Made by a program: the position numbers and the translations under genes. The notes under the pieces are model-generated. The model made no database searches. It had not been told where the DNA came from and saw only the letters and a list, made by a program, of their open reading frames with translations. Of a stretch of DNA of 64,000 nucleotides, positions 6,671 through 37,541 are shown one piece after another; positions within the stretch are counted from its first letter, which is position 1, and every line of letters starts with the position of its first letter. This DNA comes from Candidatus Bathyarchaeota archaeon (lineage in GTDB: Archaea > Thermoproteota > Bathyarchaeia > 40CM-2-53-6 > RBG-13-38-9), in NCBI GenBank assembly GCA_963807605.1, contig CAWECG010000003.1:768001-832000 (forward strand), written 5' to 3'.

Positions 6671-6991
6671 ATGAGCACGCCGATCACTATAACGGATGCA
6701 GATTTTGATACTGCAACAACAAATAACGCTGCTCTGGTCGTTGACTGTTGGGCACCGTGGTGTGGCCCGTGCAGAGCCATAACCCCTGTCGTAGATGAAC
6801 TCTCAAAGGCCTACGCTGGGAGAGTGACATTTGGCAAGGTCAACGTCGACGACAGTCCCAAGATCGCACAAAAATTCGGAATAATGAGCATACCCACTCT
6901 CCTATTCATCAAGAATGGACAGCTTGTAGACCATGTAGTTGGAGTTGTTCCGAGAAAAACTATCGAAGAATATATCCAGAAACTGCTTTAG
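6671..6991 (+). CDS. trxA: thioredoxin
   Basis: WAPWCGPC active site, SIPT cis-Pro motif; ATG at 6671. Confidence 0.95.
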   Translation: MSTPITITDADFDTATTNNAALVVDCWAPWCGPCRAITPVVDELSKAYAGRVTFGKVNVDDSPKIAQKFGIMSIPTLLFIKNGQLVDHVVGVVPRKTIEEYIQKLL

Positions 6992-7088
6992 AACTTTAAT
7001 AGCCTAGCCTTTACCGGCAGGAGATGGTCTGGAGACGAGCAAGGAAGGTATCACTCCTAAACCAAAAGACTTTGAAAAGAACTGCGAA

Positions 7089-7865
7089 TTGCTTCGTTCT
7101 CTCGGTATGTCAGAGGACGAATGCGCGGTCTATCTTGACCTCCTTGAGAAACCGAAAGGAGAGTCCATCGATAACATACTGACTAGTTTCGGGCCAGCTC
7201 CTCAAGAAGCTGAGGTGGCTGTGAGAAGCCTCATCGAGAATGGTTGCATATCGATAAGCAGTAACAGAATTGAAGCGAAACCTCCCAGAGACTTTCTACC
7301 GAATATTCTTCGTAAGAAGACGCTCGATTTTGACCTTGAACTGAAGCAGGCTCAAGAAGCCATTAGGTACCTGGAGCTTTCACTAGAACCTTATTATTGG
7401 GAGAGGCGAACAGGCCTCAGACCTGAGGAAATAATACGCCCCCTGACGGAACTTGACTCCATGGAGGCTCAGACAATTGAGATGATTACCAATTCGAGAA
7501 GTTACATCCACGTCTTTGCAGAGAAGTTTGACTGGTATGAGAACATTCACCATCAACTCAAGGACGCCCTCAACCGAGGGGTCAAAGCCAATATCTTGAT
7601 GTTGGTCAAAGACCAATACACGACCAAGAGATCAAAAGAATTGCGACAGTTGGGCGCGGAAGTCCGCCACTGCACTGAAGAATGGTATCCTGTTAGAGGA
7701 ACCTTGATCGATGATGAAAGGCTCGTCTTTCTAATATGGGCTACGAAAAAGAGTGGTGTTGCACAGCCAATCTACTATAGACCCCACTACACAGAGAATG
7801 CTGGACTGATAAGAATATTTAAAGACGCCTTCCAAAAGCGCTGGGAAGAAGCTAAAGCGATCTAG
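7089..7865 (+). CDS. TrmB-family transcriptional regulator
   Basis: LRSLGMSEDE..VYLDLL N-terminal HTH and C-terminal effector domain; start uncertain. Confidence 0.75.
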   Translation: MLRSLGMSEDECAVYLDLLEKPKGESIDNILTSFGPAPQEAEVAVRSLIENGCISISSNRIEAKPPRDFLPNILRKKTLDFDLELKQAQEAIRYLELSLEPYYWERRTGLRPEEIIRPLTELDSMEAQTIEMITNSRSYIHVFAEKFDWYENIHHQLKDALNRGVKANILMLVKDQYTTKRSKELRQLGAEVRHCTEEWYPVRGTLIDDERLVFLIWATKKSGVAQPIYYRPHYTENAGLIRIFKDAFQKRWEEAKAI

Positions 7866-8323
7866 TCCTTCACCCTCAGCCATCTTTGGGGTTTGATCCC
7901 CAGTTCCTCAAATTTCTCCCAAACCAGCTTTTCAACCTCAGATACTCCAAGACCGCCCACAAATACTAGATGTCCCTCACAAGTGCAGTCGGAGGCGCCG
8001 AATCCTCTATGGGCCACTCTGGCTCAATCGTCACTCAAGATCTTTCTAGCTAGGCTGCATTCTGAGGCACCTCGGGTCTCTGAGAATATAGCGGTAACCG
8101 GTCTTGCATGAGGATTACGTAGGAGGTAATCTATGTGCCAATGTTTCTTATTGCCTCCGTGAAAATGCCTCATAAGTCGTCCCTCAATTGATGACGAGGC
8201 TAATCCAAATCCGGATCCAACGTAGCCGTATGCACCCCTCTCAAGGTTTACCCTGCCTAGGCATCCGATCTTCACCGAGACATCTCTGCTTAAAATGATT
8301 AGCAGAGTGTAGATTCCTCTCAA
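7862..8323 (-). pseudogene. GIY-YIG/DUF123 family endonuclease interrupted by in-frame TGA
   Basis: GIYTL, YVGS, HWHIDYLL before TGA (8024-8026); the frame continues 53 codons with GFGASDCTCEGHL to TAG at 7862-7864. Confidence 0.8.
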
Positions 8324-8434
8324 TAGTGGGGCTCTCCACTATATCCCTGAGAAACCCAGCTCATATAGAAAATAATATCTCAGCTGAAGGTCAATCTTAA
8401 GCCTAAACATCCTTCAACATGCTCTATTGAGGAG

Positions 8435-9541
8435 TTGAGACAAATCAAGGCATTGATCCTTGCAGGGGGCTTCGGAACGCGCCTCAGACCCCTCTCCTGC
8501 GCCCGCCCAAAACTCCTATTCCCGATAGCCGGAAGACCGATGATCGAATGGGTACTTGACGAACTCTTGAAGAACGAAGTGGACACAGCAATTTTGGCGA
8601 CAAACTACTTAGCTGACATGATCAAGGCTCATCTTGGAAAGAAATTTGACGACATAGACCTCCATTACTCTTTGGAAGATAGACCGCTGGGGACTGGCGG
8701 AGCCATAAAGAGGGCAGAAAGGTTCCTAAAGAAGGATGAAGATTTCTTTGTCCTCAACAGTGACATAATCGCCTCACCTCCTCTGAAGGAGATCTTCCAG
8801 CAACACAAGTCGCTGAGAGCAACCGCCACTATTATGCTGCATAAGGTTAACGATCCCACACATTTTGGAGTTGCTCAGCTTGGAAGATCTATGCAAATTA
8901 CGAAGTTCATCGAGAAGCCCCGACTTCGAGACGCGCCTAGCAATTGGATCAATGCCGGCGTCTATATTCTGAACTCTAGTATCTTCAGCCAACTAACTCC
9001 TCGAACCAAGATCAGTATAGAAAAAGAGATCTTTCCAGGATTGGCTTCTTCTGGGAGACTTTACGGTTACAAGTACTTTGGGGAATGGTTCGACATTGGT
9101 AGGTTTGAGGAGTATAGAAGGGCGAATATCGCCGTTCTGTCAAGAGTCTCTACATCCAAGGCAATGATCGGTCCAAACGTTAAAGTTGATGCTAACGCTA
9201 GGCTAATTCCTCCGTTGACGATCGGTCCTCACTCAGTGGTGGGGACCGATGTGACTTTGGGTCCAAATACCTGTGTCGGCGGCAGATCCGTTATAAGCGA
9301 AGGGAGCCAGGTCTCAGACTCAATACTCTTTGACACAGTCTCTCTTGGCAAGAATTCATTCATCAACGGATCGTTGATAGGTGAATCCGCAGTTGTAGGA
9401 GCCAACGTCAGGATCGGAGAAGGATGCGTAGTCGGAGACAACGCATTCATTAATGATAATCTTACGCTAAAGAACAATGTGATAATATGTCCGTATAAAG
9501 AGGTCAGCAGAAGCATAAATCGTCCGGGAATCGTGACCTAG
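8435..9541 (+). CDS. sugar-phosphate nucleotidyltransferase (mannose-1-P guanylyltransferase-like)
   Basis: LAGGFGTRLRPL..PK, LGTGG, FIEKP, WFDIG; hexapeptide-repeat C-terminus. Confidence 0.92.
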   Translation: MRQIKALILAGGFGTRLRPLSCARPKLLFPIAGRPMIEWVLDELLKNEVDTAILATNYLADMIKAHLGKKFDDIDLHYSLEDRPLGTGGAIKRAERFLKKDEDFFVLNSDIIASPPLKEIFQQHKSLRATATIMLHKVNDPTHFGVAQLGRSMQITKFIEKPRLRDAPSNWINAGVYILNSSIFSQLTPRTKISIEKEIFPGLASSGRLYGYKYFGEWFDIGRFEEYRRANIAVLSRVSTSKAMIGPNVKVDANARLIPPLTIGPHSVVGTDVTLGPNTCVGGRSVISEGSQVSDSILFDTVSLGKNSFINGSLIGESAVVGANVRIGEGCVVGDNAFINDNLTLKNNVIICPYKEVSRSINRPGIVT

Positions 9542-16684: not shown

Positions 16685-16778
16685 AGCCCGGTAGTGTAGC
16701 GGACAAAGGATCGTTTCCGTCTAGGCATAGCGGGCTTTGGACCCGTTGACGGGAGTTCGAATCTCCCCCGGGCTACCA
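16685..16778 (+). tRNA. tRNA-Gln(TTG) with 18-nt D-loop intron and encoded CCA
   Basis: A1-U72 acceptor AGCCCGG/CCGGGCT, anticodon arm GCGGG-CTTTGGA-CCCGT, T-arm GGGAG-TTCGAAT-CTCCC; intron 16707-16724 in a BHB motif. Confidence 0.92.
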
Positions 16779-23742: not shown

Positions 23743-23903
23743 TCTTGACGTTGCATTGCTAATCCATTCGGCTCTCGCCGAGAAGGCGCGCGCTACCGCT
23801 TGCCCAACTCGAAACAACATATCAAGCAATGAGTTACGCGCGGGCATCAGCCAATCTCAGTTTTATATGGTTCGTGGTCTTCTTTTCTGGTGGAGGCAGC
23901 TGT

Positions 23904-24257
23904 ATGAAAGTGATTAGAATAGACGAAGTTGCAGCAGAGAGACATACCGGAGGCTTATTTCTAGGCACCGCGGAGTTGAAAACACTCGTCGGTGAGTCAA
24001 CAGGTGCTAGGGATCTAAATGTATCCATAGTCGCCTTCCCACCTGGTGTAAAAAACAAACCTCACGTACATATGTACGATCAAGCGCTCTATATACTGTC
24101 AGGCAAAGGCGTAGTCGCTAATGAAAAGGAAGAGATAATCGCAGAGCCCGGGATGGTTTTCTTCATCCCAGGAGGCGAGAAGCATTGGCACGGTGCAACC
24201 AAAGAGAATTCGTTCTCGCACATATCAATCATGAGGCCGGGCAAGACTGAGTTCTAG
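23904..24257 (+). CDS. cupin domain protein
   Basis: PHVHMYDQ.LYILSGKG and PGGEKHWHGA; ATG after GGAGG. Confidence 0.88.
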   Translation: MKVIRIDEVAAERHTGGLFLGTAELKTLVGESTGARDLNVSIVAFPPGVKNKPHVHMYDQALYILSGKGVVANEKEEIIAEPGMVFFIPGGEKHWHGATKENSFSHISIMRPGKTEF

Positions 24258-24354
24258 TTACACCCGTGTGACAATTTGACTTTTCAACTGGCTGTAATGC
24301 CGCAATCGTTATGTGATGATGCATCTCTATTCCAATCCGGCCAGCGGATGGTGG

Positions 24355-24368
24355 CCTTAGCTGGTGAG
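24355..24368. repeat. target-site repeat copy 1 (degenerate, distal)
   Basis: CCTTAGCTGGTGAG, 13/14 identical to the copies at 28420 and 37414. Confidence 0.85.
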
Positions 24369-24436
24369 CACACACAATAGCCGATTATCCAATTACGTTA
24401 CCATTGATAGAACACAAACGGTTCTTACCTTATTCC

Positions 24437-25105
24437 TCACAGAAATGTGAGTAGCTCAGGTAGATCATGAATTCGTACCGTCGCCACCTTCGCCAGTTCT
24501 TCATCACTATTGACGGCCACAGCCAATCCGGCGTTCTTCAAGAATCTGACATCGTACCTGCTGTCCCCTACGCACACACAATCGCTCTTGCTTATGTGCA
24601 TATCATCGAGTACATGATCGAGCGCTTCGTCCTTGCGGTTGAGGTCAACCCTAAAGATCCCGTTTCCGGTCAGAAATCCATCTCTGTCGGTTTGAAGTCC
24701 GTTAGCCACAGCAACATCGACTCCAAGCAGCGAGGCAACCTGATCAGTAAGAAGATCCAGCCCCGCGGAGATGATGACGACTTTGTATCCCCTCTGTTTT
24801 ATTTGTTGGACAACTTCCTTGGCATGAGGCGTCAGGGTGAAACTCGACAATATCGCCTTGATTTGTGAGATATGGAGCCTTCTGGGCCAGAGAGAGATAT
24901 CACGACGCATGAACTCTTCGTAGTCGATCCGTGCCTGTATATATGAAGCTAGGTTCGGAGCAGCCTTCTCTACGGTTCCAAAGTGGCCATGAATCCTCAA
25001 TCAACTACTTTTCTCGTTTACTAGAGTTCCATCCAAGTCAAAAGTAACAAGGCGGAACTTAATGGATGTATGGCCGGTGTCGTGTCTATTTGTGAAGCTC
25101 CTCAT
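24437..25105 (-). pseudogene. HAD-IB phosphoserine-phosphatase-like protein with in-frame TGA
   Basis: ATG at 25105, FDLDGTL motif I, then SS*L (TGA at 25001-25003, where homologues usually have Trp), ISAG, VGDSRYD. Confidence 0.85.
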
Positions 25106-26195
25106 CATTCGCCGACCGGTTGTAATCCTTTTTCCGTGCGTTCGAGTTTGATCGTCCAGTAAGGTGCGAACCCCTCAAATTCATCAGATGTCGCTCGTAC
25201 TTTGATAGTCAGGCCCTTTGAGTCGAATTCATACACCGAATAGCAATTTTTCCCTATTATTCCGAGATCCTCTCTAACGACACCACTGCTCCCAGTTCCA
25301 TGAACTGCAAGAGATTGAGATGATTGATATTCGTTGTTCTTCGGAGGTCGAGAGATACAAGATACGAACGGTTGATGACGATGACCATGCGAGACTATGT
25401 CGACATTCAATTGCAGTGCCTTGTACATCAGCTGTCCCGCGTCCAAAGTCAGATCATAATTCCGGCTCAGTGTCGTTATTTCTTCTACTGGTGTGGCTGG
25501 GATAAGATGATGATGCATTGTCATGATTCTATACATTACACGTTGTCCGTCTACCTTCCAGTTGAGCGAGCTGGCGGCCTGTTCAAGTTGCTCTAGACCC
25601 ACAAACCCGTAGCCTGCGAATTGCCGGTCTTCTAGCCGGGTTGAGTTTAGCCCCAGCACATCAACTGTAACGTAATTGCTAAGTAAGTATCGGCGCCCCA
25701 ATGTGAGATGCTGGTTCGGAGGCAATCCGAACGCTGCCAAGAAGAAATCAACATAGTTCTTCTGCGCGACTTCGCTTGAGAATTGAACAGGCTTCTCTGG
25801 ATCGTACTTGTCATCTTCCTGCTCAGCCCATAGAATATCGTGATTACCAGGCACAACGATGAGATCATAATAAGGGTCCAGTTCAAAGATGGTCCTTAGC
25901 GTTGACGCGCGCGCGTGCCAATCGGATCCTCTGTGTCGGATACTTTGATGTCTTTCACTTTTGCTCTGTACGTCAGATGTTTCCCGCTATCCAGCAAGTA
26001 GACGACTAATGGCTCAGTCGTGCGAGCGGTTGTCGTGAAATCTGCAAACACGGCGCGCGGAATCTTTTCTTTGGGAAGTGCCCACCATCCCCACCAAACG
26101 TAACCGTGTTGAGTGATTAAATCTCGGTGCAGCTTTATTGTGAACCCTAGTTGGGTAGCAAGATCTCGGAATCTCAACACCATCGATGTCGGCAT
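25105..26195 (-). pseudogene. metallophosphoesterase with N-terminal WWGWW domain, internally deleted
   Basis: 5' part (GYVWWGWW) ends at (CG)5 at 25906-25915; another frame resumes with DLIVVPGNHD, HHH, HGHRH; the DxH and GD motifs are missing. Confidence 0.7.
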
Positions 26196-26324
26196 TAATC
26201 CTTACCTGTTTAGAGCGAGTAATGACCTGCTGTCAGCCATCTAGCGCGCGCTAGGGTTAGAGATGTCTTTTCCATATGGCTATTGGTGCCACATTTCAAA
26301 TAAGCATTGTCAGCACACGTCAAC

Positions 26325-27212
26325 CTAGCTACGCACGCATACTTTCTGCCGCCATACTAACCCGCACACAAATCGGGGGCAGTACAGATTTTTCCGGTAT
26401 CGATCGTACTTCATACGCTTCCCACAGTTAGGGCAGTTGAAGAAGCCCTCCCAACCGCAGGTCAAACCATCCTGGCAGGAGAAAACCCCAGATTTGGTAT
26501 AGATCAGCTTGCTTCCGCAGTCTGGGCATTCATATTGGGGTGGGTGGTCTTCCATCCACCGTTTGGCTTGTGGTTTTCCCGATTGTATATTCTCGTAGGC
26601 CAACCAGCCGTCAACTTTCTGAATAATGTCCTCCCCCAAAGTTGGGAAGGCGTAATTCGGATAATGCTCCACATTGTATTCCCTGCGGTCTTTGTAGTCG
26701 TCAGCGGTCAATTCTTTGTGCATGAATTCCTCAAAAGTCAATCCAAGTCGTTGCAGGTGTTGCCTTATTTCGCCCAGTTTTTCAGGGGCTTCGGATAGAA
26801 CCTTCTCCACGAGCCCTAGCATTTTTGCTCGGTCATGCGACGCCTCATATTCTTCGAGTATTCGCTGGAATTTCCAGGCTTCACGTCGATGATGATCCCT
26901 TTCCAGCTCGGTTAGGTATTTCGCCTTTGCAAGCTCCTCTAGATTTGTTGCTGTTTTGACTTCAATCTTCAACTTTTCAAGCTCTTCGTCTGTGGGAGTC
27001 TGCGAGGCCTCTGCTTTGGATTCTTCTTCCTCAGCTTTCTTGAGCTTTTGAAATTGGCGGAATATCGTTGACTTTGGCGTGTCAAGCTTTTCTGCAAGAG
27101 ATCTCAACGAAGCGAGCCCTGCCTTCCATTCTAAGTAGGCCTTTCTCAACTTGTTCTCACCTGGTTGGAAATTTGCGTCATTGAGTCCCGTACTTCGTTC
27201 AAGGAGAGTCAT
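26325..27212 (-). CDS. HTH + coiled coil + double zinc-ribbon protein
   Basis: SLRSLAEKLDTPKSTIFRQF HTH; CPDC...C...C and CPNC...CP..C. Confidence 0.75.
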   Translation of the reverse strand: MTLLERSTGLNDANFQPGENKLRKAYLEWKAGLASLRSLAEKLDTPKSTIFRQFQKLKKAEEEESKAEASQTPTDEELEKLKIEVKTATNLEELAKAKYLTELERDHHRREAWKFQRILEEYEASHDRAKMLGLVEKVLSEAPEKLGEIRQHLQRLGLTFEEFMHKELTADDYKDRREYNVEHYPNYAFPTLGEDIIQKVDGWLAYENIQSGKPQAKRWMEDHPPQYECPDCGSKLIYTKSGVFSCQDGLTCGWEGFFNCPNCGKRMKYDRYRKNLYCPRFVCGLVWRQKVCVRS

Positions 27213-27612
27213 GTGATCACCGTTAATTCAAGACTATTTAGCTATTTCCAGTTCATTTATAAGGCTTTTTGAAGTAAAAATGAATAATAAAGAGTAATAT
27301 GTTGAAATAAATAAGAAATCATTGAAATAATCAACAATCATGAAAATAAGCACTTCTTAAATTAAGGAAAGATGAATTCCCAAAAAATAAACAGGGACAA
27401 CCCGTTCGTGCATACACTGACAACCGCATCCGTCTGTAGGCTGAGGGAGGGAGACAAAGATTATCGGGGCATGTTCGACTTTTGACGGAACGTGCGCAGC
27501 TATTCTTTCTTGGAAGTGGTTCCCCACAGAATTCAAAAGGACACACTGATTCCAGATTATCAGCACGAATCAAGGTTGCACATACACGTAGTGGAGCACT
27601 ATGACCCCCACT

Positions 27613-27768
27613 GGGACAACCGGGACAATGAGGACAATGGGACACTAGAATCTGATGGAAAATCGGAGTCTTATGTATTGAAAAGATTTTTTGAATCATC
27701 TAAAAAAGTACTTGGGACACGTGAAACATGTGGAACATGGCAGGACATGTCAAAACAGAATGGGACAT
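27613..27768. repeat. iteron-like 9-10 bp periodic GGGACA/GGAACA repeats
   Basis: gggacaacc-gggacaatg-aggacaatg-ggacac (27613-27645) and gggacacgt-gaaacatgt-ggaacatgg-caggacatgt...gggacat (27714-27768). Confidence 0.75.
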
Positions 27769-27813
27769 AAGGCGGCTTAATCAGAGAAAGAAGCCAGGAA
27801 CGTCAAGGTAATA

Positions 27814-28176
27814 GTGTTGCTCTTGGCTGACGAAACACAAAACAGAACGTACTCGAAAGGCCAGCTAAACAAGATTATCGACTCAGTCGTGCATCCCCTT
27901 TTCAAAAAAGATGCCAAATTCATCATAGTTGACAGCGCTCTCCACGCACTTGTCGAACAAAATCCCACCCTCTCGATAAGTAAATTCCTCAAATACAACC
28001 TCCAAGAGATTGTCCAACAAACAGTTGGAAAAGACAAACTCAGAAAAAAGAGAGTTGACAGCCTCATAAGACAGTTAAGGAAATTGTCTAGAGAATACCA
28101 GAGCATCCCAAGAAGACGCGTGCGTTCTGGCGGCAAAGCATCAAATGCCGCGCGCGGGTCGACAACCTCGACGTAA
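27814..28176 (+). pseudogene. hypothetical protein fragment
   Basis: Upstream in-frame ATG cut off by a TAA (MGHKAA*SEKEARNVKVIV); the tail runs into GC-alternating tracts. Confidence 0.45.
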
Positions 28177-28317
28177 CTTTTTTTAAGATGCCACCAAAAC
28201 GAACATAACTGTGTTTAGACGATGAATAATCGGACTGTGGCAGGGTCTCTCCTACTAGTCGGCAGCGCCCAATACATCATTAGTATGATTGTGGCGGAGT
28301 CTGTATACCGCGCGCGC

Positions 28318-28410
28318 TTCTCATTTTTCCAGTTTTGTTGCCCTTCTTGAATTTGCGTTCAGGATGTTCAATGTAGTCTTCAACCATCTTATCCAGTGTA
28401 TTCCAGTATT
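28318..28410 (-). pseudogene. short remnant resembling the C-terminal region of casposon family B DNA polymerase
   Basis: Translates QYWNTLDKMVEDYIEHPERKFKKGNKTGKMR, resembling the YW..L....Y..HPE.K...G..G..RRH pattern I recall from casposon PolBs. Confidence 0.5.
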
Positions 28411-28419
28411 GTGTGTGTG

Positions 28420-28433
28420 CTTTAGCTGGTGAG
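28420..28433. repeat. target-site repeat copy 2, shared by elements A and B
   Basis: CTTTAGCTGGTGAG between (TG)n and (CGA)4. Confidence 0.92.
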
Positions 28434-29894
28434 CGACGACGACGAAACATTAATTCTGTGAGGGAATACCGGGTAGCACTGTGAAACGATTTCGAGTATT
28501 CTGTCGACTATGCGACAAACATCCGGAATAACATCGGGCAGGCTGCGTGGAGAGCCTCTTGGAATCCTGTGAAGTCTATGAAGTGGATTACCGCAGAGCG
28601 CAAATTCCGCATCACGCAATCCGCCCCAATGTCCATGAGAAAAAGTTGACATCCAAGAATAGAAGCAGTCGTACACATCTTTGGCACCGGCCTCTATACT
28701 GATCTTTCTGAGGTCTGCGTTCGCCCAGTGACCCAGTTCAATGGGCAAGAATTCTTGCCAGATGTCTTCGTTGGCGAGTGCTCGAAGCGTATCCGTATTT
28801 ACATAGCTCGATTTCTCGTTCAGGTGGTTCAGTTTTAGGTAGGATAACTTCACTTGGCCAGCGCCAAAGATCCTATATGATTTCCAGAGGTCATCCGTGT
28901 CTTTCACTGCTAGATACTTCAAAGTGATGTAACACTCCACAATAGTTCTAAGAATAATGCGCCCAGAAATGGAGTGGCTCAGGTGATTTCTGCACAGTTC
29001 CACGACTAAGCTGAGACAATAAAGCGCGATACCGAAAGTGGTGTCGTGGCGTGGATCTAATGCCGTTGTCGTTCTAGATTTGTTGCAGTGTTCCAAAAGG
29101 AGATCGTAAAGTTCCTTCACACGACTATCGGTACCCTCAAGGCTGTGCTCACTCGCTTGGACTTCTGGGATAGAATAGCAAGGAGTGTCACGCAGACATT
29201 GCTGCCAGAACGTGGCAGGCCATCTTCTGATCGTTTTATCAACTTGCCTGAAGGTTATTTCCATTGAGCGAATCGTCGGTTTGACTTTTCGCTGGTCTCC
29301 ACGGTCAGGGTAAAATAGGATTTCTTCTGCTATCTCTCTGTGTTCAGAAGAAAATTTTATTTTCCTAGAGACCATCATGCACAGCACTCTCACCCATCGG
29401 CAGTCCGTCGATTCTTGCGATTGATGATTGAGTATACTTGCCACAGCAAGCATTAGCGCCTCCCAATCTGTGCTCGAAGGAGAATCCTTGATCTTACTTG
29501 CCCATTCTCTTCTAGAGGGAATGTCCAACAGAAGAAGAGGCCTGAGTATGCGTCTATGTTCGTCGACTTCGACAAGAATATCTAGAATTTCATCGAGAAC
29601 AGGTGGTCTTAGATTCGAAAGACCAGTGTGTGTTATGTCGTCAGGGCGATCATTCCCCTGAAACTCAGCTACATATTTCACTATTTTTCGCAATACTGTC
29701 AAAGCATCTGGGCGAGGAAGATGTGAGAGCAAAAGTGACGTCCAAATGAACTCAGGTAGAAAGTCATCGATCCATGACATTGGCTGCAAATTCGGAATAG
29801 TTGCAAGCGACGGAATTAGGGTACCCTTGCTTAGCTTGTGCTGATCAATTGTTGAGTGATCATTCTTTGAAAGTGGTGTGCCTTGATTGGTCAA
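28422..29894 (-). CDS. DUF5677-like protein (cargo)
   Basis: 490 aa; IILRTIVE.YI, Y...S.FSHG.W helical C-terminal motifs; its stop lies in the target repeat. Confidence 0.65.
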   Translation of the reverse strand: MTNQGTPLSKNDHSTIDQHKLSKGTLIPSLATIPNLQPMSWIDDFLPEFIWTSLLLSHLPRPDALTVLRKIVKYVAEFQGNDRPDDITHTGLSNLRPPVLDEILDILVEVDEHRRILRPLLLLDIPSRREWASKIKDSPSSTDWEALMLAVASILNHQSQESTDCRWVRVLCMMVSRKIKFSSEHREIAEEILFYPDRGDQRKVKPTIRSMEITFRQVDKTIRRWPATFWQQCLRDTPCYSIPEVQASEHSLEGTDSRVKELYDLLLEHCNKSRTTTALDPRHDTTFGIALYCLSLVVELCRNHLSHSISGRIILRTIVECYITLKYLAVKDTDDLWKSYRIFGAGQVKLSYLKLNHLNEKSSYVNTDTLRALANEDIWQEFLPIELGHWANADLRKISIEAGAKDVYDCFYSWMSTFSHGHWGGLRDAEFALCGNPLHRLHRIPRGSPRSLPDVIPDVCRIVDRILEIVSQCYPVFPHRINVSSSSLTS

Positions 29895-30039
29895 AGTTAT
29901 TCTTCCTCAAGCTTATGCTAATCACAAGGTGAACTAATCACATACTCTCGCTGATCAAGTTGAAGTCTCCACATCTGTAACACTTTGGAGGTTGTTTTAC
30001 ACGAACACGCCCGCGAGTAGGGACGCCAATAGCTCCTTC

Positions 30040-31182
30040 CTAATGGTAGTCCGTTGGGTCTCCGGGGATCCAGTTTTCAAGAGGTTCCTTCAGAATAGTT
30101 GGCAATTGAGCATCATTGAAACATCTGTCTATCTGGTACATGTTCCTTTGCAGGTCACTCCCAAGTTTCGCCTTGATTGAAGTCGCAACCGGATCAACCA
30201 GAAATATCTTCAGCGCGAGATTTTCCTTGACCGCATTATAAAACACGTTGTTTACCGCTTCGTCTCTAAAGGAATAACCAATGACGATGCACACCGGGGT
30301 TCTCTTCAATTTCTCTTGAAACAAATGAAATAGTTCAAAGAAAGGATCTTGATAGATATATTTCGTTTGAATTGGATAGATCAACAATTCTCCGCGAATG
30401 TTATCTCCGTAGAGTGTTTTCTCTTGCCTCGCTGGCAGCAAGATAATTTCCCCTTTGTCAGTTATCCACTGGTCTATTGAACCGTGAAGCTTGTGAAGGC
30501 GAATGCGTTCGTCTCCGGCGAATCCTTCGTGTTGATGGAGATTCTTGATGTTGAAAATCATTTTGGTCTTGGTTGGATCCGCGTCGAATCCGTTTGTCAT
30601 TGGTATCATTTTCTTGTTACAGTATAGTTCTATGCAGAGGTCATAGTTAGTGGTGATTATGTCGACCGGAAGGTAAGTGGTTGCCGTGCCCGAAAGTCTG
30701 GCTGATATTATGTTGGTAATCCGTTCAGGAGATCTCGAAGCCTTAACTCTGAGAATGTTCAGCGCCTCAAAAAGTGAATCGTAGGTTTTAGTCATCTTGT
30801 CGATCTGTTCCTCTTTCAATCGAGAGGTCTCGTAGATGTAGTTCTTGATGGCTTGAATCGTATTCTCAAGATCTGGACGTTTAGGCAGTTGATCAATGGC
30901 ACTATATTGGGATAAGTACCATGGGAAGGGCCCAGAATCTCGAACGGCCTCTTTGGGGCTCATATAGCTGGTTAGAACGGTCAAGACCGATTCCAGATCG
31001 GGTGTAAAACCGAATTCTCTAATCTTCTTTTGAATTGACTCGATATCGTATTTGTTGATAGAGGGTATCTGCTTGATCTCATCGGTCATTTCCTGTAAAG
31101 TAGGAATGTCGAAACTCCTTGAGGCTCCTGCACCAAGAAAGACAATCACAAGAACCAACCCCCGCAAGCTACTAAGGCGCAC
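30040..31182 (-). CDS. SIR2-like (SIR2_2) protein, putative NADase
   Basis: FLGAGAS, TTNYD, KLHGSI, IGYSFRD. Confidence 0.9.
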   Translation of the reverse strand: MRLSSLRGLVLVIVFLGAGASRSFDIPTLQEMTDEIKQIPSINKYDIESIQKKIREFGFTPDLESVLTVLTSYMSPKEAVRDSGPFPWYLSQYSAIDQLPKRPDLENTIQAIKNYIYETSRLKEEQIDKMTKTYDSLFEALNILRVKASRSPERITNIISARLSGTATTYLPVDIITTNYDLCIELYCNKKMIPMTNGFDADPTKTKMIFNIKNLHQHEGFAGDERIRLHKLHGSIDQWITDKGEIILLPARQEKTLYGDNIRGELLIYPIQTKYIYQDPFFELFHLFQEKLKRTPVCIVIGYSFRDEAVNNVFYNAVKENLALKIFLVDPVATSIKAKLGSDLQRNMYQIDRCFNDAQLPTILKEPLENWIPGDPTDYH

Positions 31183-31183
31183 G

Positions 31184-32353
31184 CTAACTAGGAATAGTTT
31201 CCTCTGGGTAGTTTAGTCTGAAGAAATCCCTTACAATTTGGTCTTTGAGCTTGTAGTTTCCTTCCATTTTGAATATCAAATCGAACTCGATGAGTTTAGT
31301 CAAGTATCGAATCAGCCACTCCGGCCTTAGGCCCGTTTCTTTAGCAATTTTTGAAACGCTCATTTCTTCTTTTGAGAGAGCTCTTAGTATTCTCGCATAG
31401 TTCGTTTCTGTGACTTTAGAACCTAGATCATCGCTTAAAATATAGTTAACATACAAATAGAGGCCTCCAGTAACATTAGTCAACAGTCGCTCATATCTTT
31501 CTGCAACAGCCTCTCCCGGTCTTCTCGCTTCTGCCATTACAAGAAGGTAGAAAGGGTGCCCTCCTACAAGTCTGTAGACTTCTTCAGCTTCATTACGATC
31601 TACTTCTAGAGCTGCATTCAAGTAGAGCTCCCTAGCGTCTTTTTCCTCAAGAGGCCCAACCTCAATCAAGTTGAATCTGCCAAATAATGGTGAACCACCT
31701 TCACCAAATATACTCTTTAACATATGGACTCTGGAACCACTTAAGATGATGGAGACTCCTGCCAACTCATCTATGATTGATCTGAACTGATCCATCACAT
31801 TTTTCATACCGTCAAATCTAGTCCATTCAATGATTTTCTGAGCTTCATCCAAGATTATGACGACTCTTGTCCCTGAGACAGTGGCCAAATGGGAAGCGTA
31901 AGAAAAGGCTTTTCCAAAAGATTCAGTAAATCTTGGTTTTTCGTTCGCAAAAGCAGGTCTAATTGTCCAAACAGGTTTTCCGACATCATCTAGAGTGAGA
32001 TCGAACTCCACACGCAACCTTCTCAATTTCTTGATTTCTTTGATTGCATCACCTACCTGACTAATGATTTGTGATTTTACGTCAAGTGTTTTTTTATAGG
32101 ATTCGGTGAGCGAGTCGATGATGGCTTGGTTAAATTCACTAGGATCATAGCCATATTTTGAGAAATCTAGTCTCGTGACAATGACATTCTGGTCAGCTAA
32201 GCGTTTCTCCAGTTCCTTTAGGATAGCGGTTTTGCCAATTCTTCTTGGGCCTATTAGGGCATAATGCATTTTCGCGCCCAGTTTCGTCAGCCCTTCAAGA
32301 AGTTTTGTCAGTATTTCCTCTCGGTCAACTATGTTATCGAACATATATGTCAT
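31184..32353 (-). CDS. archaeal AAA/STAND-like ATPase with C-terminal winged helix
   Basis: VDREE, GPRRIGKT, IILDEAQ, LSGS, SPLFGR, GGHPFYL; HTH at SVSKIAKETGL. Confidence 0.88.
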   Translation of the reverse strand: MTYMFDNIVDREEILTKLLEGLTKLGAKMHYALIGPRRIGKTAILKELEKRLADQNVIVTRLDFSKYGYDPSEFNQAIIDSLTESYKKTLDVKSQIISQVGDAIKEIKKLRRLRVEFDLTLDDVGKPVWTIRPAFANEKPRFTESFGKAFSYASHLATVSGTRVVIILDEAQKIIEWTRFDGMKNVMDQFRSIIDELAGVSIILSGSRVHMLKSIFGEGGSPLFGRFNLIEVGPLEEKDARELYLNAALEVDRNEAEEVYRLVGGHPFYLLVMAEARRPGEAVAERYERLLTNVTGGLYLYVNYILSDDLGSKVTETNYARILRALSKEEMSVSKIAKETGLRPEWLIRYLTKLIEFDLIFKMEGNYKLKDQIVRDFFRLNYPEETIPS

Positions 32354-32470
32354 CTAACATATATGTTGAATTACATATAAGTTTCCCTGTCAACAATTGT
32401 TTCGCCAAGCTTACGAAGGCATGTTTTCCAACACATATGTCGTATAACATATATGCGATATAACATATGT
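32341..32470. repeat. palindromic ACAT(AT)ATGT repeat cluster over the ATPase start and upstream region
   Basis: Copies at 32341, 32357, 32373 (partial), 32433, 32447, 32463. Confidence 0.8.
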
Positions 32471-32827
32471 GCTAGTCGTCACCCATGACGTGTGCAATAC
32501 CTATGCCAATAACCTCGATTCTCTTCTATTGTCCTGTTTTAACCCCGTTACACTTCACTATTCCTGCTTAGACTACAAAAAAGGTGATTTTGTCTCCATA
32601 ATACTGCCGCAGATCTCGGATACAATTTCCAATACGGGAGAAATGTCCTGATTTTGCTTGATTCCATCAGAAACAACCTCATTCTACTAGCTATTTCTCT
32701 GATTCAATTAGCTTTTTGATATATCCCTCCTATGGTATTCTATGATTATGCTATGATTTAGTTTCAGAGATAACATGTCATAATCAGGCCAGAAGTGGAC
32801 ACCTCTATGTCTCCATTTCTCCTACAA

Positions 32828-33655
32828 TTATGGAGCATCTTGGACTCTAGTGGATTCTATCGGATTGAATCTGGAGTTCAAGTACTTGGATAAGTCAAGG
32901 AATTCATCAAACTCTTCCCGCGTGACATCAGTCTTTTCCTTCATTAGCGCCAAGGCCTTGAGAAACGTCTTAGCATTCAAGAAGAACCTGAAGCCGTAAA
33001 ATTTCATAGAGTCACCGATCTTGATGCTGATAGGAACCAGATCCTTCGCGATGTCTTTCGGAAGAATGACATCAACTGGTTGAGTTGGAAATTCTAAGTC
33101 AATCTTGTCTCCAACAGCGCTCTTGTCTTCCAGAAGAGAATCGTATATCCTGCAAACCGCAGATATGGGATAGCTATAGCTGAAGAGGAACATTCTGCTT
33201 AGGAAACCCATCTTAGCCCAATCGTGTCTGCCATCCTCCAGAGCATCTTCAGTAATCGCGGTCAATAGTCCGCAGTTCACTTCTTTGTCCCAGACATTAG
33301 CGTACGTTGTGATTTTTGCGACTCCTTCCTCAATGAGGTTATTCAGAAAAGCTATCAAAGACTGTCTTGTCTTCGCGCTTTTGCTGAGTGGAGTGATCAA
33401 GTCTGCTATTATGATGTGTTTGACCTCTCCTGACACTACCTTCGGCAGGACATCACGTGTTAGACCGAAAGCTGTACAATCGGTGTAGTAGACGATTCCC
33501 TTGTTCTCCTTGTACTTCTTCAGGACGGCTGTCTTTCCGCTTTCAGGTTTAGCGACAATAAGAAGCGAGAGAGGCTTCTCATCTTTCAAATATGCACTGT
33601 AGAGAGTAGCTCTTACTGTCTTTTCCAGTGCATCTAATTCTATAATTCTTGGCAA
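32828..33655 (-). CDS. AAA+ ATPase, putative replicative helicase
   Basis: Walker A AKPESGKT, Walker B IIIAD, LNNLIEEG, Arg-finger-like GFLSR. Confidence 0.75.
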   Translation of the reverse strand: MPRIIELDALEKTVRATLYSAYLKDEKPLSLLIVAKPESGKTAVLKKYKENKGIVYYTDCTAFGLTRDVLPKVVSGEVKHIIIADLITPLSKSAKTRQSLIAFLNNLIEEGVAKITTYANVWDKEVNCGLLTAITEDALEDGRHDWAKMGFLSRMFLFSYSYPISAVCRIYDSLLEDKSAVGDKIDLEFPTQPVDVILPKDIAKDLVPISIKIGDSMKFYGFRFFLNAKTFLKALALMKEKTDVTREEFDEFLDLSKYLNSRFNPIESTRVQDAP

Positions 33656-33687
33656 TATTCCTCAACCATTTTCTGTCTCGCCGAGCT

Positions 33688-34161
33688 TCATACTCGTACT
33701 CTCGTTCCAGCTCGCGATCTTCCTCTATGTTCACTGTCCTTATGCTCATGCTGAAGTCTCCTTGCGAGTGATCTTGTGTTCTGGATGGTTGACTGAGAAG
33801 ATGCACTGCCTCGATAGATAGTCCGCAATCTCTTGTTAGGAGATTCGAAGAGCTTGTTCCATTCCTTGAATCCAACTCGTATTCGCGCGCGATTGAAATC
33901 TACTCTTCGACAATCATCACCTAAAAGGAACTGTAATCGATTCGCAAGCTCCGATTTCATCGCAGGGATTATTTTGATGTAGAAGTGGTTGCCTTTGCAT
34001 CGACTTGGACACATTCTTATTTGGACAACTTTGACCCCATGATTCCTGCAAATATTGACCACTGACCGGACATAGTCGCTTATCCATTCATGGTCTACGA
34101 CACAGTCCTTATCGACCTTTAATTCATCGACGAGTCCTGCGTCTGTACCTTTTCTTGACAT
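33688..34161 (-). CDS. small archaeo-eukaryotic primase (AEP)-like protein
   Basis: LKVDKD (DxD), SRCKGNHFYI (SxxxGxH), LGDD in AEP motif order. Confidence 0.55.
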   Translation of the reverse strand: MSRKGTDAGLVDELKVDKDCVVDHEWISDYVRSVVNICRNHGVKVVQIRMCPSRCKGNHFYIKIIPAMKSELANRLQFLLGDDCRRVDFNRARIRVGFKEWNKLFESPNKRLRTIYRGSASSQSTIQNTRSLARRLQHEHKDSEHRGRSRAGTRVRV

Positions 34162-34495
34162 AACTAATCACTCTTGATGGTAGTCGGTGGGCCTTCCACC
34201 TCCGACCTTTGCGCTCCATCCTTAACGCTTCAATAGTCAGATGCCGTTGCGTCTTGGTTGCTGGTCTCTCACGCTCGAATGAAATCCTAATGTATTTTTT
34301 CGGAATCCAACGTCTATGCTTCCGATACAAATGTCGTTGAAAATATTGAAGCCCTCTTCTCGCAAGACTTCTCCTTACTCTTCTGATGTCACCTTTTCTC
34401 GTTGCCGTAATGTACATTTCCTGTTCCTGTGGTATCTTCTGATGCTCTTCATACCACATTGTAGAAACCGTCATTTTGTAGATTCTAGCCGACAT
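34124..34495 (-). CDS. very basic Arg/Lys-rich protein
   Basis: 123 aa, overlaps both neighbours in the same operon. Confidence 0.65.
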   Translation of the reverse strand: MSARIYKMTVSTMWYEEHQKIPQEQEMYITATRKGDIRRVRRSLARRGLQYFQRHLYRKHRRWIPKKYIRISFERERPATKTQRHLTIEALRMERKGRRWKAHRLPSRVISYVKKRYRRRTRR

Positions 34496-34751
34496 TGGAC
34501 ATCCTCTTTTCTTGGTAGCCCGATCCCTTGACTGAGCGGACCTTGTTGGGAGAATTTATCCAGAAAATCCAGCTTTTTGAAGACTTGACTGCCTGAATTC
34601 TACCTTCGTATAGGAGTTCTAGGCAATGTTTCAGGGCGGTGTTCCAGTTGCCAATCCTACACGCCACCCTAATCTTCTCTACATCCAATGGTTGCTGAGT
34701 TTCAGCGAGTTGCTTAAGAATGGAAGTCTTGTAATCGAAACTTTTCTTCAT
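34485..34751 (-). CDS. small winged-helix protein
   Basis: ILKQL...PLDVEKIR..CRIGNWNTALKHCLELL.EGRI...SKSWIFW; ATG at 34751. Confidence 0.7.
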   Translation of the reverse strand: MKKSFDYKTSILKQLAETQQPLDVEKIRVACRIGNWNTALKHCLELLYEGRIQAVKSSKSWIFWINSPNKVRSVKGSGYQEKRMSNVG

Positions 34752-34823
34752 TCGAATCGCCTTACAGAAGATCTTACATGAATTGTTATATAGAGGCGTA
34801 CACATGCAATTATCCGAAGATGC

Positions 34824-35498
34824 GTGGGTATGGACAAGTATGAGGCGCTTGCAGAGAAACTCAACCGTGTAAGAACAGGAATTCTGCTAAATGGTCCAAT
34901 CACTGTGTATGGTATCGAGAGATACTTAGACCTTCCAAATGCGACGGCTAAGAGATATTTCAAAACCCTGCTAAGAGAGAAAGAGATTATTCAATACAGG
35001 ACAGAACCGCACAAAAGTGGAAATATCAAGATACTCTATGGGCCGACCCTCTACGGTTATTTAAGATGGTTCAGAATCCCGAAGAGCATTGCCAAGAAGA
35101 ATTTTGGGGCAGCAATGAAAATTTGGCTTCCAGAAGACAAATTCGAATTCTTTCTACCCAAGAACGAATTACAAGAGGCGCTGAAGAATAGCCAAGTTGT
35201 AGTTCATTTATCGAGATTCTGTCAGATGATCGCAGATGTACTCCCTGACGCAGAAGACTTCTCAAGTTACCTAGAAGACCAAGGCTACAGCGAATCCAAT
35301 CCCTCACAGATAATCAGTCTAGCTATGCAATTTGTAGGCAGAAGCCATGCTAAAGAATGGACTGCAAGTTCAAAAGTTCTCGTCAAATATTTGCCGACCT
35401 ACCAGCAGCAGCTACAGCAATTCATTCGGAATCAGCGAGAACGACTTGATCGCATGGAAAAAGAGATCTTTGGGCATGAGGGAGGAAGTCAAGAATGA
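34824..35498 (+). CDS. HTH regulator upstream of cas1
   Basis: GPITVYGIERYLDLPNATAKRYFKTLL; ATGA overlap with cas1. Confidence 0.75.
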   Translation: MGMDKYEALAEKLNRVRTGILLNGPITVYGIERYLDLPNATAKRYFKTLLREKEIIQYRTEPHKSGNIKILYGPTLYGYLRWFRIPKSIAKKNFGAAMKIWLPEDKFEFFLPKNELQEALKNSQVVVHLSRFCQMIADVLPDAEDFSSYLEDQGYSESNPSQIISLAMQFVGRSHAKEWTASSKVLVKYLPTYQQQLQQFIRNQRERLDRMEKEIFGHEGGSQE

Positions 35499-36703
35499 AT
35501 CCTCTTCATCTTTCTGGTTACGGCGTCAAGGTCAAGGTCGATAATATGCGTCCTAAGTCAGAGCTTGTGATATCTGATGGCAGACAGGACTTCAAGGAAG
35601 GCTCAGCCTATCGCTTTAGGCCAAGAAAGATTCCTTATGACTCCATCATCATTGACGGTCACAGCGGCTACATCTCTCTTCAAGCCTTCCACTGGCTATC
35701 CAAGAACAAGATTCCAGTCTTCATCCTCAACTTCGATGGTAGCTTGATTTCGTCTATTCTTCCTCCTATGCCTGTTAAGGCTGACTTGAGAGCTGCACAA
35801 TTAGACGCCTCAAGAGATGCTGAGAAGACATTCAAGATTGCATATGAACTGGTGAAGGCTAAGATTCAGAGAACCCATGATGTCTTGAAGTGGCTTGCAG
35901 ATAGATACGACATAGAAAAGCAAGCGAGGAAAGTCAAAAAAGAATCCTTGACTCTCTCAAAGGCAAGTACAATCAAAGACCTGAGAATTGTCGAAGGCAG
36001 AGTAGCTCTAAGATATTGGCAAACTATCCAGTCAGTTATTCCTGAGACCTTTGATTTTCAAGGCAGAATCACCAAGAAACATCAGTACAATGCTTCAGAC
36101 CCTGTTAATCTGGCGCTGAACTATGCTTATGGAGTATTGGAGGGCGAATGCCGTAGAGCAATAAACATCGTAGGCTTAGAGCCTTCAGTCGGCTTTTTGC
36201 CTGATTTCGCTGATTACCAGACCAAACAATCATTGGTCTACGACTTGCAGGAACCCTTCAGATGGATTGGTGAAATAGCTACAATACAGGCCTTCGAGTC
36301 GGGTCTACTGGATATGAAAGATTTCTATTTCATGGGCGACGATTACCGCTATCACCTTGAGATAGAAGCTAAGAGAAGATTCCTACGATTTCTCAAAGAA
36401 CGATTCAACTCAGCAATTAGGTACAAAGGCAAGGTATGGCAGTGGGATACTGTTATCCTGAATAAGGTTCAAGAGTTAAGCAGATTCTTTCTTGGGAGAT
36501 CCAAGTTCGTAGACTTCATAGAACCTGCTCCAAGTCTGGTAAGAAGCGATAGTTTGGAATTTCGCAATCGAATTCTAGAGCTGACACAGAAACAGGCTCA
36601 AGGACTTGGCATGAGTAAGAGTACTCTTCATCATCTGCGTAAGAATATTAGTAGTGATAAATCGTTTAGAGTATATCAGAAGGTTGCCTGTAGGCTGAAG
36701 TAA
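35495..36703 (+). CDS. cas1: casposase-type solo Cas1 with C-terminal HTH
   Basis: MNPLHLSGYG start, IPYDSIIIDGHSG.IS, VEGRVA..YW, ASDPVNLALNYAYG.LE, SLVYDLQEPFR, HTH QAQGLGMSKSTLHHL; no cas2 or CRISPR array. Confidence 0.92.
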   Translation: MNPLHLSGYGVKVKVDNMRPKSELVISDGRQDFKEGSAYRFRPRKIPYDSIIIDGHSGYISLQAFHWLSKNKIPVFILNFDGSLISSILPPMPVKADLRAAQLDASRDAEKTFKIAYELVKAKIQRTHDVLKWLADRYDIEKQARKVKKESLTLSKASTIKDLRIVEGRVALRYWQTIQSVIPETFDFQGRITKKHQYNASDPVNLALNYAYGVLEGECRRAINIVGLEPSVGFLPDFADYQTKQSLVYDLQEPFRWIGEIATIQAFESGLLDMKDFYFMGDDYRYHLEIEAKRRFLRFLKERFNSAIRYKGKVWQWDTVILNKVQELSRFFLGRSKFVDFIEPAPSLVRSDSLEFRNRILELTQKQAQGLGMSKSTLHHLRKNISSDKSFRVYQKVACRLK

Positions 36704-37396
36704 ATGGCTGAGAAGAAGCATTCTAGACGTAGATTTCTGAAGTATGTAGGAGCGGGGATTGTTGCAGCAACTGCTGGAATATGCTACCTAACTAAGGACT
36801 ATTGGTATTCTCGCATACAGGAAGCCTACAAAGAATTCTATACAAGAATGTTTCCAGAAAGGAGTTCGACTACCACCACAACAGCTTCCACCACAACAGA
36901 AACTCAAACTCCCAGTATTATCCAATCACCATCGGCCACTGTAACTCCAACACCAACACCAAAGGAACAGATGTCCGAAGACGAAATAATGATAAGAGGA
37001 GTCCTGGCTGCGTGGAGAGATCTCTACAATCCTGGAAAAACGGGTAATACTCTCGGGGTCTATACGGACGATGCCGTCTTGGATTTTGGCTGCAGTAGTG
37101 ATAGAGTCGGGAGCTTTACCGGGTCGGCTGAAATATCAGCGTTCATCAGTGGACGTGTGGCTGAAGATGATTGCAAAATGGCGAATCAGATAATAGAAAC
37201 GTTGAGAATACAGGACAATGAGGCATATGTCGTATGCTATGAGGATTTGATGACTAGCAGAGGAACCGCTAGATGGCTCAGCAAATTCAAGCTGAGAAAG
37301 ATCAGCGAAATCAGGCGTGGAGCCAGCACATTCAAACTCCCAAAACCACTTTGGAAAATACAGGATGAGTATTCTCACTGTGCGCAAGACGGCTGA
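36704..37396 (+). CDS. Tat-signal protein with Thr-rich linker and NTF2/SnoaL-like domain
   Basis: SRRRFLK twin-arginine motif, poly-Thr/Pro, IRGVLAAWRD, YTDDAVL, LWKI. Confidence 0.8.
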   Translation: MAEKKHSRRRFLKYVGAGIVAATAGICYLTKDYWYSRIQEAYKEFYTRMFPERSSTTTTTASTTTETQTPSIIQSPSATVTPTPTPKEQMSEDEIMIRGVLAAWRDLYNPGKTGNTLGVYTDDAVLDFGCSSDRVGSFTGSAEISAFISGRVAEDDCKMANQIIETLRIQDNEAYVVCYEDLMTSRGTARWLSKFKLRKISEIRRGASTFKLPKPLWKIQDEYSHCAQDG

Positions 37397-37413
37397 AATC
37401 GTCGTCGTCGTCG

Positions 37414-37427
37414 CTTTAGCTGGTGAG
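37414..37427. repeat. target-site repeat copy 3 (proximal to putative leader)
   Basis: CTTTAGCTGGTGAG immediately after (TCG)5. Confidence 0.92.
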
Positions 37428-37446
37428 AGCATCCAGATTTGAACCG
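37421..37446 (-). other. tRNA 3'-end-like motif forming the putative casposase target
   Basis: Minus strand CGG-TTCAAAT-CTGGA-TGCTCTC-A-CCA: T-loop, exactly 12 nt, discriminator, CCA; no recognisable 5' half. Confidence 0.6.
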
Positions 37447-37541
37447 TTAGATTATGATTTTGTGTGTGGTGCTACTTGGTTAGAGTATCGAGATCCCCCT
37501 TCACTTTGCACATGCCAGAACTCCTCGGAACTATTGAACTG

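Follow-up and report, generated by a model that had tools for sequence, protein, structure and literature searches.

Casposon-like elements probably piled up in tandem beside a tRNA-like leader in a Candidatus Bathyarchaeota genome

A 64,000-nucleotide stretch of the genome of a Candidatus Bathyarchaeota archaeon (assembly GCA_963807605.1, contig CAWECG010000003.1, positions 768,001 to 832,000 of the forward strand), hereafter the window, carries two adjacent insertions separated and bounded by copies of a single 14-bp repeat: a decayed element, E1, and a Cas1-bearing element, E2, beyond which lies a leader-like unit, U. The locus is most probably a pile-up of site-specific, Cas1-dependent casposon-like transposons, in which E1 and E2 each integrated here. 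The genome that holds the window, designated G000, spans 2.65 Mb and is 94% complete; L-numbered sequences (L009, L010, L032, L036, L040, L043) are contigs from related populations or metagenome-assembled genomes (MAGs).

A first-pass annotation, made from the letters of the window alone, had described three 14-bp repeats around two inserts, and these are read directly from the sequence, the inserts being 4051 and 8980 bp long (Table 1). Each insert has its own inverted tips: those of E1, CACACACAAT and ATTGTGTGTGTG, are 8-10 nt long and of (CA)n type, and those of E2, CGACGACGACGA and TCGTCGTCGTCG, are 12 nt long and of (CGA)n type. The C that follows GAG is part of the element tips, so the repeat measures 14 bp. 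Of the features by which casposons are recognized, terminal inverted repeats (TIRs) are present in both elements, though minimal and of simple sequence, and the target-site duplication (TSD) of 14-15 bp has its counterpart in the 14-bp direct repeats that flank both. The repeats and the distinct tips bear out the annotated arrangement of two different elements in tandem at one 14-bp target. The leader-distal copy is indeed the odd one and the two nearer copies are identical, with the qualification that the odd copy matches the genome-wide consensus, CC[A/T]TAGCTGGTGAG, and both leader-proximal copies carry a deviating T; the mismatch lies away from the leader, in the half of the site that varies. 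For a random 14-mer, about 5e-4 occurrences would be expected per 64 kb, and the exact 12-mer core occurs 23 times in G000, against 0 for the reversed control. Chance origin of the repeats is ruled out by these core counts and by the consensus. A hairpin reading of the tip-site-tip arrangement (GTGTGTG-N14-CACACAC) was discarded, since about half of the junctions have unlike tips.

The leader had been placed to the right of the array, and U occupies that position. On the minus strand, U and the repeat read ...AACGG-TTCAAAT-CTGGA-TGCTCTC-A-CCA-GCTAAAG, a spacing of T-loop + 5 + 7 + A + CCA that reproduces exactly the geometry of a tRNA 3' end. Host tRNAs encode CCA and GGTTCAAAT, and both the geometry of U and its GGTTCAAAT motif match them; T-stem pairing at U amounts to 3/5 pairs only. 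Neither ARAGORN nor Rfam (E<=1) detected a tRNA or known RNA between 22 and 40 kb, which rules out such a gene at the site and indicates that the leader is a relic. By this comparison, the leader, AGCAYC-N3-AWTTGAACC, is a relic of a tRNA T-loop and acceptor end.

Table 1. Features of the array, its flanks and related Cas1 genes (window coordinates unless a G000 contig is named; HTH, helix-turn-helix; wHTH, winged HTH; AEP, archaeo-eukaryotic primase)
Feature	Position	Strand	Remarks
Cupin block	23794-24354	+	Cupin_2 gene; ends in (GGT)n-like tip GGATGGTGG; absent from empty allele
Repeat copy 1	24355-24368	+	CCTTAGCTGGTGAG; leader-distal; equals family consensus
E1	24369-28419		4051 bp; (CA)n tips; no Cas1; decayed cargo
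Broken anti-phage DS-9-like gene	25105-26195	-	Two pieces, open reading frames (ORFs) 41 nt apart
Zn-ribbon protein	26325-27212	-	295 aa; 62% identity to gene of Cas1-bearing L010 element
Repeat copy 2	28420-28433	+	CTTTAGCTGGTGAG; common to E1 and E2
E2	28434-37413		8980 bp; (CGA)n tips; Cas1; no PolB
E2 variable cargo	28422-32353	-	DitA-like (DUF5677), SIR2-like, archaeal ATPase with wHTH
Iterons	32315-32484		Two clusters of three 16-bp ATGTnnTCnAACATAT; palindromic ACATATATGT cores
MCM-like AAA+ ATPase	32828-33655	-	275 aa; Walker A, consensus KPESGKT
AEP-like protein	33688-34161	-	157 aa; D17xD19, K56GxH59 and D82D83 invariant in 24 homologues
wHTH protein	34824-35498	+	Upstream of Cas1, overlaps Cas1 start; look-alikes are wHTH families
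Cas1	35495-36703	+	Casposase-type; 402 aa; C-terminal HTH; Pfam Cas_Cas1 E 3e-49
Repeat copy 3	37414-37427	+	CTTTAGCTGGTGAG; leader-proximal
Leader unit U	37428-37471	-	44 bp; minus strand CACCACACACAAAATCATAATCTAACGGTTCAAATCTGGATGCT, then repeat (CTCACCA...)
51-bp stretch	37472-37522		Between U and resumed empty-allele homology; also in L036
Cas1 C-terminal half	C3:1057618-1058241		G000; fragment; His kept
Cas1 N-terminal piece	C1:340634-340979		G000; fragment

This layout closely resembles the target of the A. boonei casposase, in which a 15-bp TSD segment adjoins 18 bp from the T-loop region of tRNA-Pro (PMC5137440). The combination of a 14-bp TSD and a T-loop leader mirrors that target and thereby supports integration of the casposase type. 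The two cases differ in that the leader of AciBoo-C1, whose duplicated segment is 15 bp rather than 14 bp, lies within a real tRNA-Pro gene, whereas U is a relic with incomplete T-stem pairing (PMC5137440, PMC6614799). The target would accordingly consist of two parts, a 14-bp segment duplicated at each insertion, with its TGGTGAG half conserved, and the adjacent tRNA-relic leader. Integration of both elements at one site would leave a single 14-mer between them and one at each outer end. If the leader is needed for recognition, by analogy with the A. boonei enzyme, only the leader-adjacent copy would be a good target; E2 would then be the youngest insert, E1 older, and a cupin block at the left end of the array older still.

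The same site recurs throughout G000, where about 149 copies were counted across two classes, CC[A/T]TAGCTGGTGAG and TGTCCCTTGGTGAG. The part common to both is the leader-proximal TGGTGAG, a conserved-half estimate that is partly circular through the way sites were selected. The leader stands on the GAG side at 44/149 sites and on the opposite side at 0, and leader-like motifs found independently are preceded by TGGTGAG in 46 of 61 cases. Every copy of U runs into a (CA)n or (CAC)n tip and then a further site, from which it follows that leader and site are themselves mobile DNA, and this explains their multiplicity. A search of 301 Bathyarchaeia genomes for the site-leader junction placed it within f1, the family to which the window belongs (genera g1, g2, g3 and g8), apart from one single-mismatch match in each of three other families. 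The same combination of site, tips and leader also flanks Cas1 elements in other Bathyarchaeia MAGs. Chaining of sites yielded six clean arrays in G000, 4/6 of them ending in a leader, too small a number to test whether repeats decay with distance from it.

Several features of these dispersed sites are recorded for their own sake. The TGTCCCTTGGTGAG class comprises 48/149 sites (e.g. C1:137897, C3:43225, C4:17366), many U units of 40-50 bp stand in tandem between G000 sites like miniature inserts, and a fourth kind of element end, GGGGATATAGATAACTGGCTGTTT, is present in the genome. A GGCTCGCTACGCGAGCC-like subterminal palindrome lies 15-30 nt inside many tips (C1:375988, L010:42, L011:2110, L036:1044), though not in those of E1 or E2, and could be bound by the casposase. 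A second polar array is found in L010 (CAYXJU010000050.1, positions 1-9114), with co-oriented sites at 42, 506, 605, 1947, 8986 and 9060 and a leader after the last. Its inserts measure about 450 bp, 85 bp, 1.3 kb, 7 kb and 60 bp, of which the 60-bp mini-insert is the leader-proximal one and the 7-kb insert is a Cas1 element with mixed tips, CATACAC and CGTCGTCGG.

The Cas1 of E2 is of the casposase type, carries a C-terminal HTH and is unlinked to cas2 or CRISPR, as in casposons. It matches the Cas1 structure PDB 6opm, presumably the M. mazei casposase, with E 6e-72 over residues 4-397, the C-terminal HTH included. Cas2 was not found in the 94%-complete genome, in keeping with the solo Cas1 of the first-pass annotation, and the Cas1 of E2 is the sole full-length copy in G000. 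The reported loss of its catalytic His is equally evident: codon 36200-36202 is CCT (Pro236), compared with CAT (His) in the GFLHDF motif of three relatives of 70-81% identity. The Glu/His/Asp triad of casposases is consequently not intact in E2, which keeps the Glu (VEG) and Asp (YDLQEPFR) motifs. With the catalytic His lost, any transposition must have preceded that change or relied on an enzyme supplied in trans. The other two copies of Cas1 in the genome are fragments, and the element family now looks frozen in G000 to judge from these three genes.

E2 lacks PolB. Neither PF00136 nor PF03175 was found in it, so that it does not qualify as a self-synthesizing casposon; PolB was likewise not found in L043 or in the related L010 element, which is complete, and the two PolB genes of G000 lie far from every site. 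Because both PolB and the catalytic His were looked for and found missing, E2 is termed casposon-like and not a family-2 casposon, and by its gene content it is a member of a PolB-less lineage. Five components are conserved between E2 and the L010 and L043 elements: Cas1, a wHTH protein, an MCM-like ATPase, an AEP-like protein and a 123-aa protein. Counterparts of the wHTH protein are a wHTH + HEAT protein in L009 (9168-10004) and an HTH_5 protein in L043. The gene of the 275-aa ATPase adjoins Cas1 in L010, L009 and L043, and its AlphaFold2 (AF2) model (pLDDT 77, pTM 0.81) retrieved MCM ATPase domains in 50/50 of the top 50 Foldseek matches in the PDB (E 4e-9, query TM-score (TMq) 0.62-0.68). 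The 157-aa protein, whose AF2 model has a pLDDT of 81, resembles most closely the LigD polymerase domain and PrimPols, in weak matches (E 8e-3, prob 0.98, 78 columns), and probably contains a minimal AEP (primase-polymerase) core. For the 275-, 157-, 123- and 106-aa core proteins, no match was obtained in PHROGs, NCBIfam or Pfam. Iterons, examined in E2 only, sit in an AT-rich spacer (GC 0.39) between the E2 ATPase gene and the MCM-like gene, and this region is a candidate replication origin.

The variable part of E2 consists of candidate defence genes, resembling a defence island, in which PADLOC recognized DitA (E 1e-75), SIR2 (E 6e-29) and a PDC-S01-like ATPase. A tblastx comparison of this cargo with L009 and L010 gave no match. 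The cargo of related Cas1 elements differs: L010 encodes a TIR-domain protein, and L009 has HerA/NurA-like genes. The DitA-like ORF ends within repeat copy 2 (stop codon TAA, 28422-28424, minus strand), and its last eight codons are formed by the (CGA)n tip of E2 and the site, so that the landing site ends a cargo gene.

E1 is a non-autonomous, decayed element. The annotated contrast between a decayed and an intact insert is confirmed by the Cas1 element in E2 and, in E1, by the missing Cas1 and the split DS-9-like gene. The N-terminal piece of this gene (25896-26195) matches a Pfam PUA-like profile at positions 1-91 of 176, the C-terminal phosphoesterase piece (25105-25854) matches NCBIfam NF053862 at positions 283-478 of 486 (E 4e-49), and about 190 profile positions are gone between them. 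The right part of E1 has copies of 91-94% identity at two other loci.

The locus is present in populations from peat, soil and wetland. Relatives offer several alleles of it, and the right-hand genes R1-R4 are syntenic in them. In L032, a JGI contig with R1 92% identical, and in a wetland contig, X7, the SnoaL gene is joined to R1 via about 200 nt, and cupin, repeat, leader, E1 and E2 are all absent; homology of L032 with the window ends at 23793 and resumes at 37523, and the X7 contig skips from 23783 to 37524. L040, a soil Logan contig, carries SnoaL and cupin followed by ...GGATGGTGG-TGGACTTACCTAGAG-AGCATCCAGATTTGAACCGTTAGA, with the leader present and both E1 and E2 absent. L036 (R1 94% identical) has the 51-bp stretch and the leader, then TTTTAGCTGGTGAG and a different, (CGT)n-tipped insert in the leader-proximal slot, and so provides the other inserts at the site that the annotation had envisaged. 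Genomes of genus g3 have leader, site and a (CA)n end at the matching position downstream of R1. In G001 (same genus), G002 and G012, unrelated sequence follows R1, with no common left flank and no clean empty site. The FKBP-R1 interval of G002, from a sister genus, holds 13.6 kb of unrelated DNA (G002:C3; L026 1204-14845), which makes the interval a variable island in different lineages. Taken together, these alleles indicate that the locus is a recurrent landing place. No contig from four runs joined 24368 to 28434 or 28433 to 37428, as an allele with one element would, an absence that is uninformative.

The proposed sequence of events, leader-proximal integration of one element after the other, fits the model of Béguin et al. 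(2016, PMC5137440), in which successive casposons, as with CRISPR spacers, are expected to insert between the leader and the casposon already present, but the order itself is not established. The repeat pair of E2 is identical, the only perfect pair among the six cleanly bounded G000 elements, and the pair of E1 differs by one base in an element that carries a broken gene. Arrival of E1 first and E2 second is, on balance, slightly favoured.

Several observations weigh against this account. The order of insertion rests on one base in the variable half of the site and on gene decay, and the decay of E1 may be earlier than its insertion. In L036 the variable position is T (TTTTAGCTGGTGAG). The older state here may thus have been T, with mutation of the leader-distal copy, a change that would say nothing about the order of insertion. 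The tips are 8-12 nt of simple sequence, much below the typical length of casposon TIRs, and mixed-tip elements exist, as in L010. Direct repeats give clean boundaries to only 6 elements in G000, the majority of the 149 sites being scrambled junctions, and the resident Cas1 is without its catalytic His. The most direct objection comes from L040. The empty site predicted by the first-pass annotation is realized in part, since insert-free forms exist in L032, X7 and L040, but in L040 the flanks GGATGGTGG and AGCATCCAG are joined through the non-canonical TGGACTTACCTAGAG and not through a canonical repeat. That sequence shows at least 5 differences in about 14 nt from the canonical 14-mer, between flanks that are about 95% identical. 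Plain duplication of such a site would not yield canonical repeats, and with the sole unoccupied allele showing another sequence, a strict duplication origin of the 14-mers is not proven. Possible explanations are that the L040 site is mutated or an excision scar, that the contig is misleading, or that the elements bring their own 14-mer.

The last of these leads to an alternative in which an element, likely circular, bears a canonical 14-mer between its tips, recombines with the leader-adjacent site and replaces the resident sequence. The repeats would then be imported recombination sites, and the array would be cassette-like, as in an integron. This would account for the non-canonical 15-nt sequence that L040 shows where the occupied allele has three canonical 14-mers, and for the near invariance of the 14-mer at genome-wide junctions between unrelated elements, although strict target specificity and a portable leader and site explain that invariance equally well. 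A parallel exists in MetMaz-C1, which forms tandems at its own site in vivo, whose excision left a single site, and whose new insertion seemed to bring the donor TSD along in place of the original site, a circular intermediate having been proposed (PMC10359463). Carriage of the TSD to new sites would explain the non-canonical empty allele here. The MetMaz-C1 evidence is experimental, obtained by polymerase chain reaction (PCR), and that presented here is purely comparative; moreover, the M. mazei authors warn that the site replacement may be an artefact (PMC10359463). The iterons of E2 and its MCM-like/AEP-like module could allow circular replication, but no circular junction was observed. The case from L040 rests on one short Logan contig, which reaches just the first 30 nt of the leader repeat (27 nt aligned), and its site could be a mutated or scarred derivative. 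Integration with a carried site, the foremost of the alternatives, is considered unlikely on this evidence.

A broader form of this idea would make the Cas1 integrase the engine, or former engine, of a genome-wide cassette system, in which PolB-less replicon-like elements and miniature inserts of 40-60 bp each bring along a 14-bp site together with a portable leader of tRNA-like form. Such a system is conceivable, if rather doubtful. Were it real, each insertion would seed the next, building polar leader-repeat-insert arrays, and the locus would represent a living intermediate between casposons and CRISPR arrays, formed through site-carrying integration by a circular intermediate and not through simple target duplication.

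The scrambled junctions, inverted sites and mixed tips at most G000 sites also raise the question of whether the array was imported or reshuffled en bloc, by homologous recombination between dispersed copies of leader, tip and site, in which case its order would not be temporal. U here and U of L036 are more divergent than their flanks, and the G000 allele has a deletion left of the cupin gene relative to L040, both of which would suit such an event. The homology available for it, however, is just 14 bp plus short tips on one side, the three repeats are co-oriented with a leader at one end, as in L010, and the repeats flanking E2 are identical. Import as a block is therefore judged very unlikely, and successive insertion of E1 and E2 remains the preferred account.

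The enzyme responsible has also to be considered, because tRNA 3' ends are classic att sites and most cassettes are without Cas1. A tyrosine integrase or an integron-like recombinase acting on a tRNA-like att could have moved the cassettes, with Cas1 as a passenger. E1, E2 and the flanks yielded no integrase, however, and att duplications made by integrases are not accompanied by inverted tips of the element. Casposase biochemistry agrees with both the 14-bp length and a leader with a T-loop, and Cas1 co-occurs with the sites in several MAGs. Another recombinase is, on these grounds, the most improbable of the explanations considered, and Cas1-dependent integration is retained.

The closest published counterparts are the tandem family-2 casposons of Methanosarcina (Met2HT1A3-C1/C2, Met2HA1B4-C1/C2), in which a common 14-bp TSD lies between the elements and one copy is inactivated (Krupovic et al. 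2016, PMC4779613). Adjacent elements with a single 14-bp TSD between them, decay of one and a casposase with a C-terminal HTH are common to both cases. The Methanosarcina target is a tRNA 3' end or an intergenic sequence resembling one, to which the target here would correspond. The Methanosarcina tandems differ in consisting of close relatives with PolB, whereas the elements described here are unrelated, have different tips and lack PolB, and the pseudo-tRNA end that would be their target occurs in about 150 dispersed copies. CRISPR arrays, like this locus, are polar, involve a Cas1 homologue and have a leader and, next to it, a short direct repeat of which each Cas1-mediated insertion makes another copy. 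The locus is nonetheless not a CRISPR array, as its inserts are mobile elements with tips, from 40 bp to 9 kb (kilobase elements or homologous 40-50-bp U units), its repeat is 14 bp long and non-palindromic, and neither Cas2 nor an effector accompanies it. Pile-ups of Tn7-type elements at attTn7 and integron arrays likewise build accessory or defence islands by reuse of one site, but they depend on TnsABCD or on the tyrosine integrase IntI, have another site structure and involve no Cas1. Nor does the locus have the makeup of an integron, as no integrase is present in window 21-41 kb and the cassettes have inverted tips and gene orientations of their own.

The array as such is a further example of a published arrangement. 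A literature search on casposons in Bathyarchaeota or on casposon miniature inverted-repeat transposable elements (MITEs) found nothing relevant. New with respect to the literature are heterologous elements at one site, a helicase/primase-like core without PolB, a portable pseudo-tRNA leader with about 150 sites, and the allele series. The CRISPR adaptation module is proposed to descend from casposons. The passage from a single transposon and site to a polar array behind a leader was previously illustrated just by a few Methanosarcina tandems, and this locus adds a natural series of states at one site (empty, unoccupied, differently occupied, doubly occupied), as well as evidence that unrelated elements use a common leader and site. 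It further points to a Cas1 lineage in which PolB appears to be replaced by an MCM-like/AEP-like replicon module and to a route by which candidate defence genes (SIR2, DitA-like, DS-9-like) may be stacked, and its empty allele bears on whether casposons carry their target site along.

The flanks of the array show possible traces of older events. The cupin block is itself probably a third, oldest insert of the array, and its tip appears in L040 as GGATGGTGGTGG, a microsatellite variant. An exact-protein look-up of the 142-aa cupin ORF returned no record, the called gene being 117 aa. The 51-bp stretch beyond U may have been left behind by an older element with a (GGGGAT...) end; its minus strand reads TGTGCAAAGTGAAG-GGGGATCTCGATAC..., which by eye is like a decayed class-B site followed by a GGGGAT-type end. 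TIRs and TSDs were sought for both the cupin block and the 51-bp stretch, with no convincing repeats, and the GGGGAT-type likeness is by eye only. A GCGCGC / AGCGCGCGCT motif lies at the left breakpoint of the insert relative to L032 (window 23786-23793), occurs in the intergenic region of L032 as well, and recurs beside several G000 sites (e.g. ggaggctagcgcgcgctta) and 3' of R1 in G001, L033 and L037. Elsewhere in the window, at 16685-16778, ARAGORN reports a 94-nt 'tRNA-???' with an abnormal anticodon loop and a two-base anticodon, 'tc', possibly a false call, possibly a tRNA that is atypical or has an intron.

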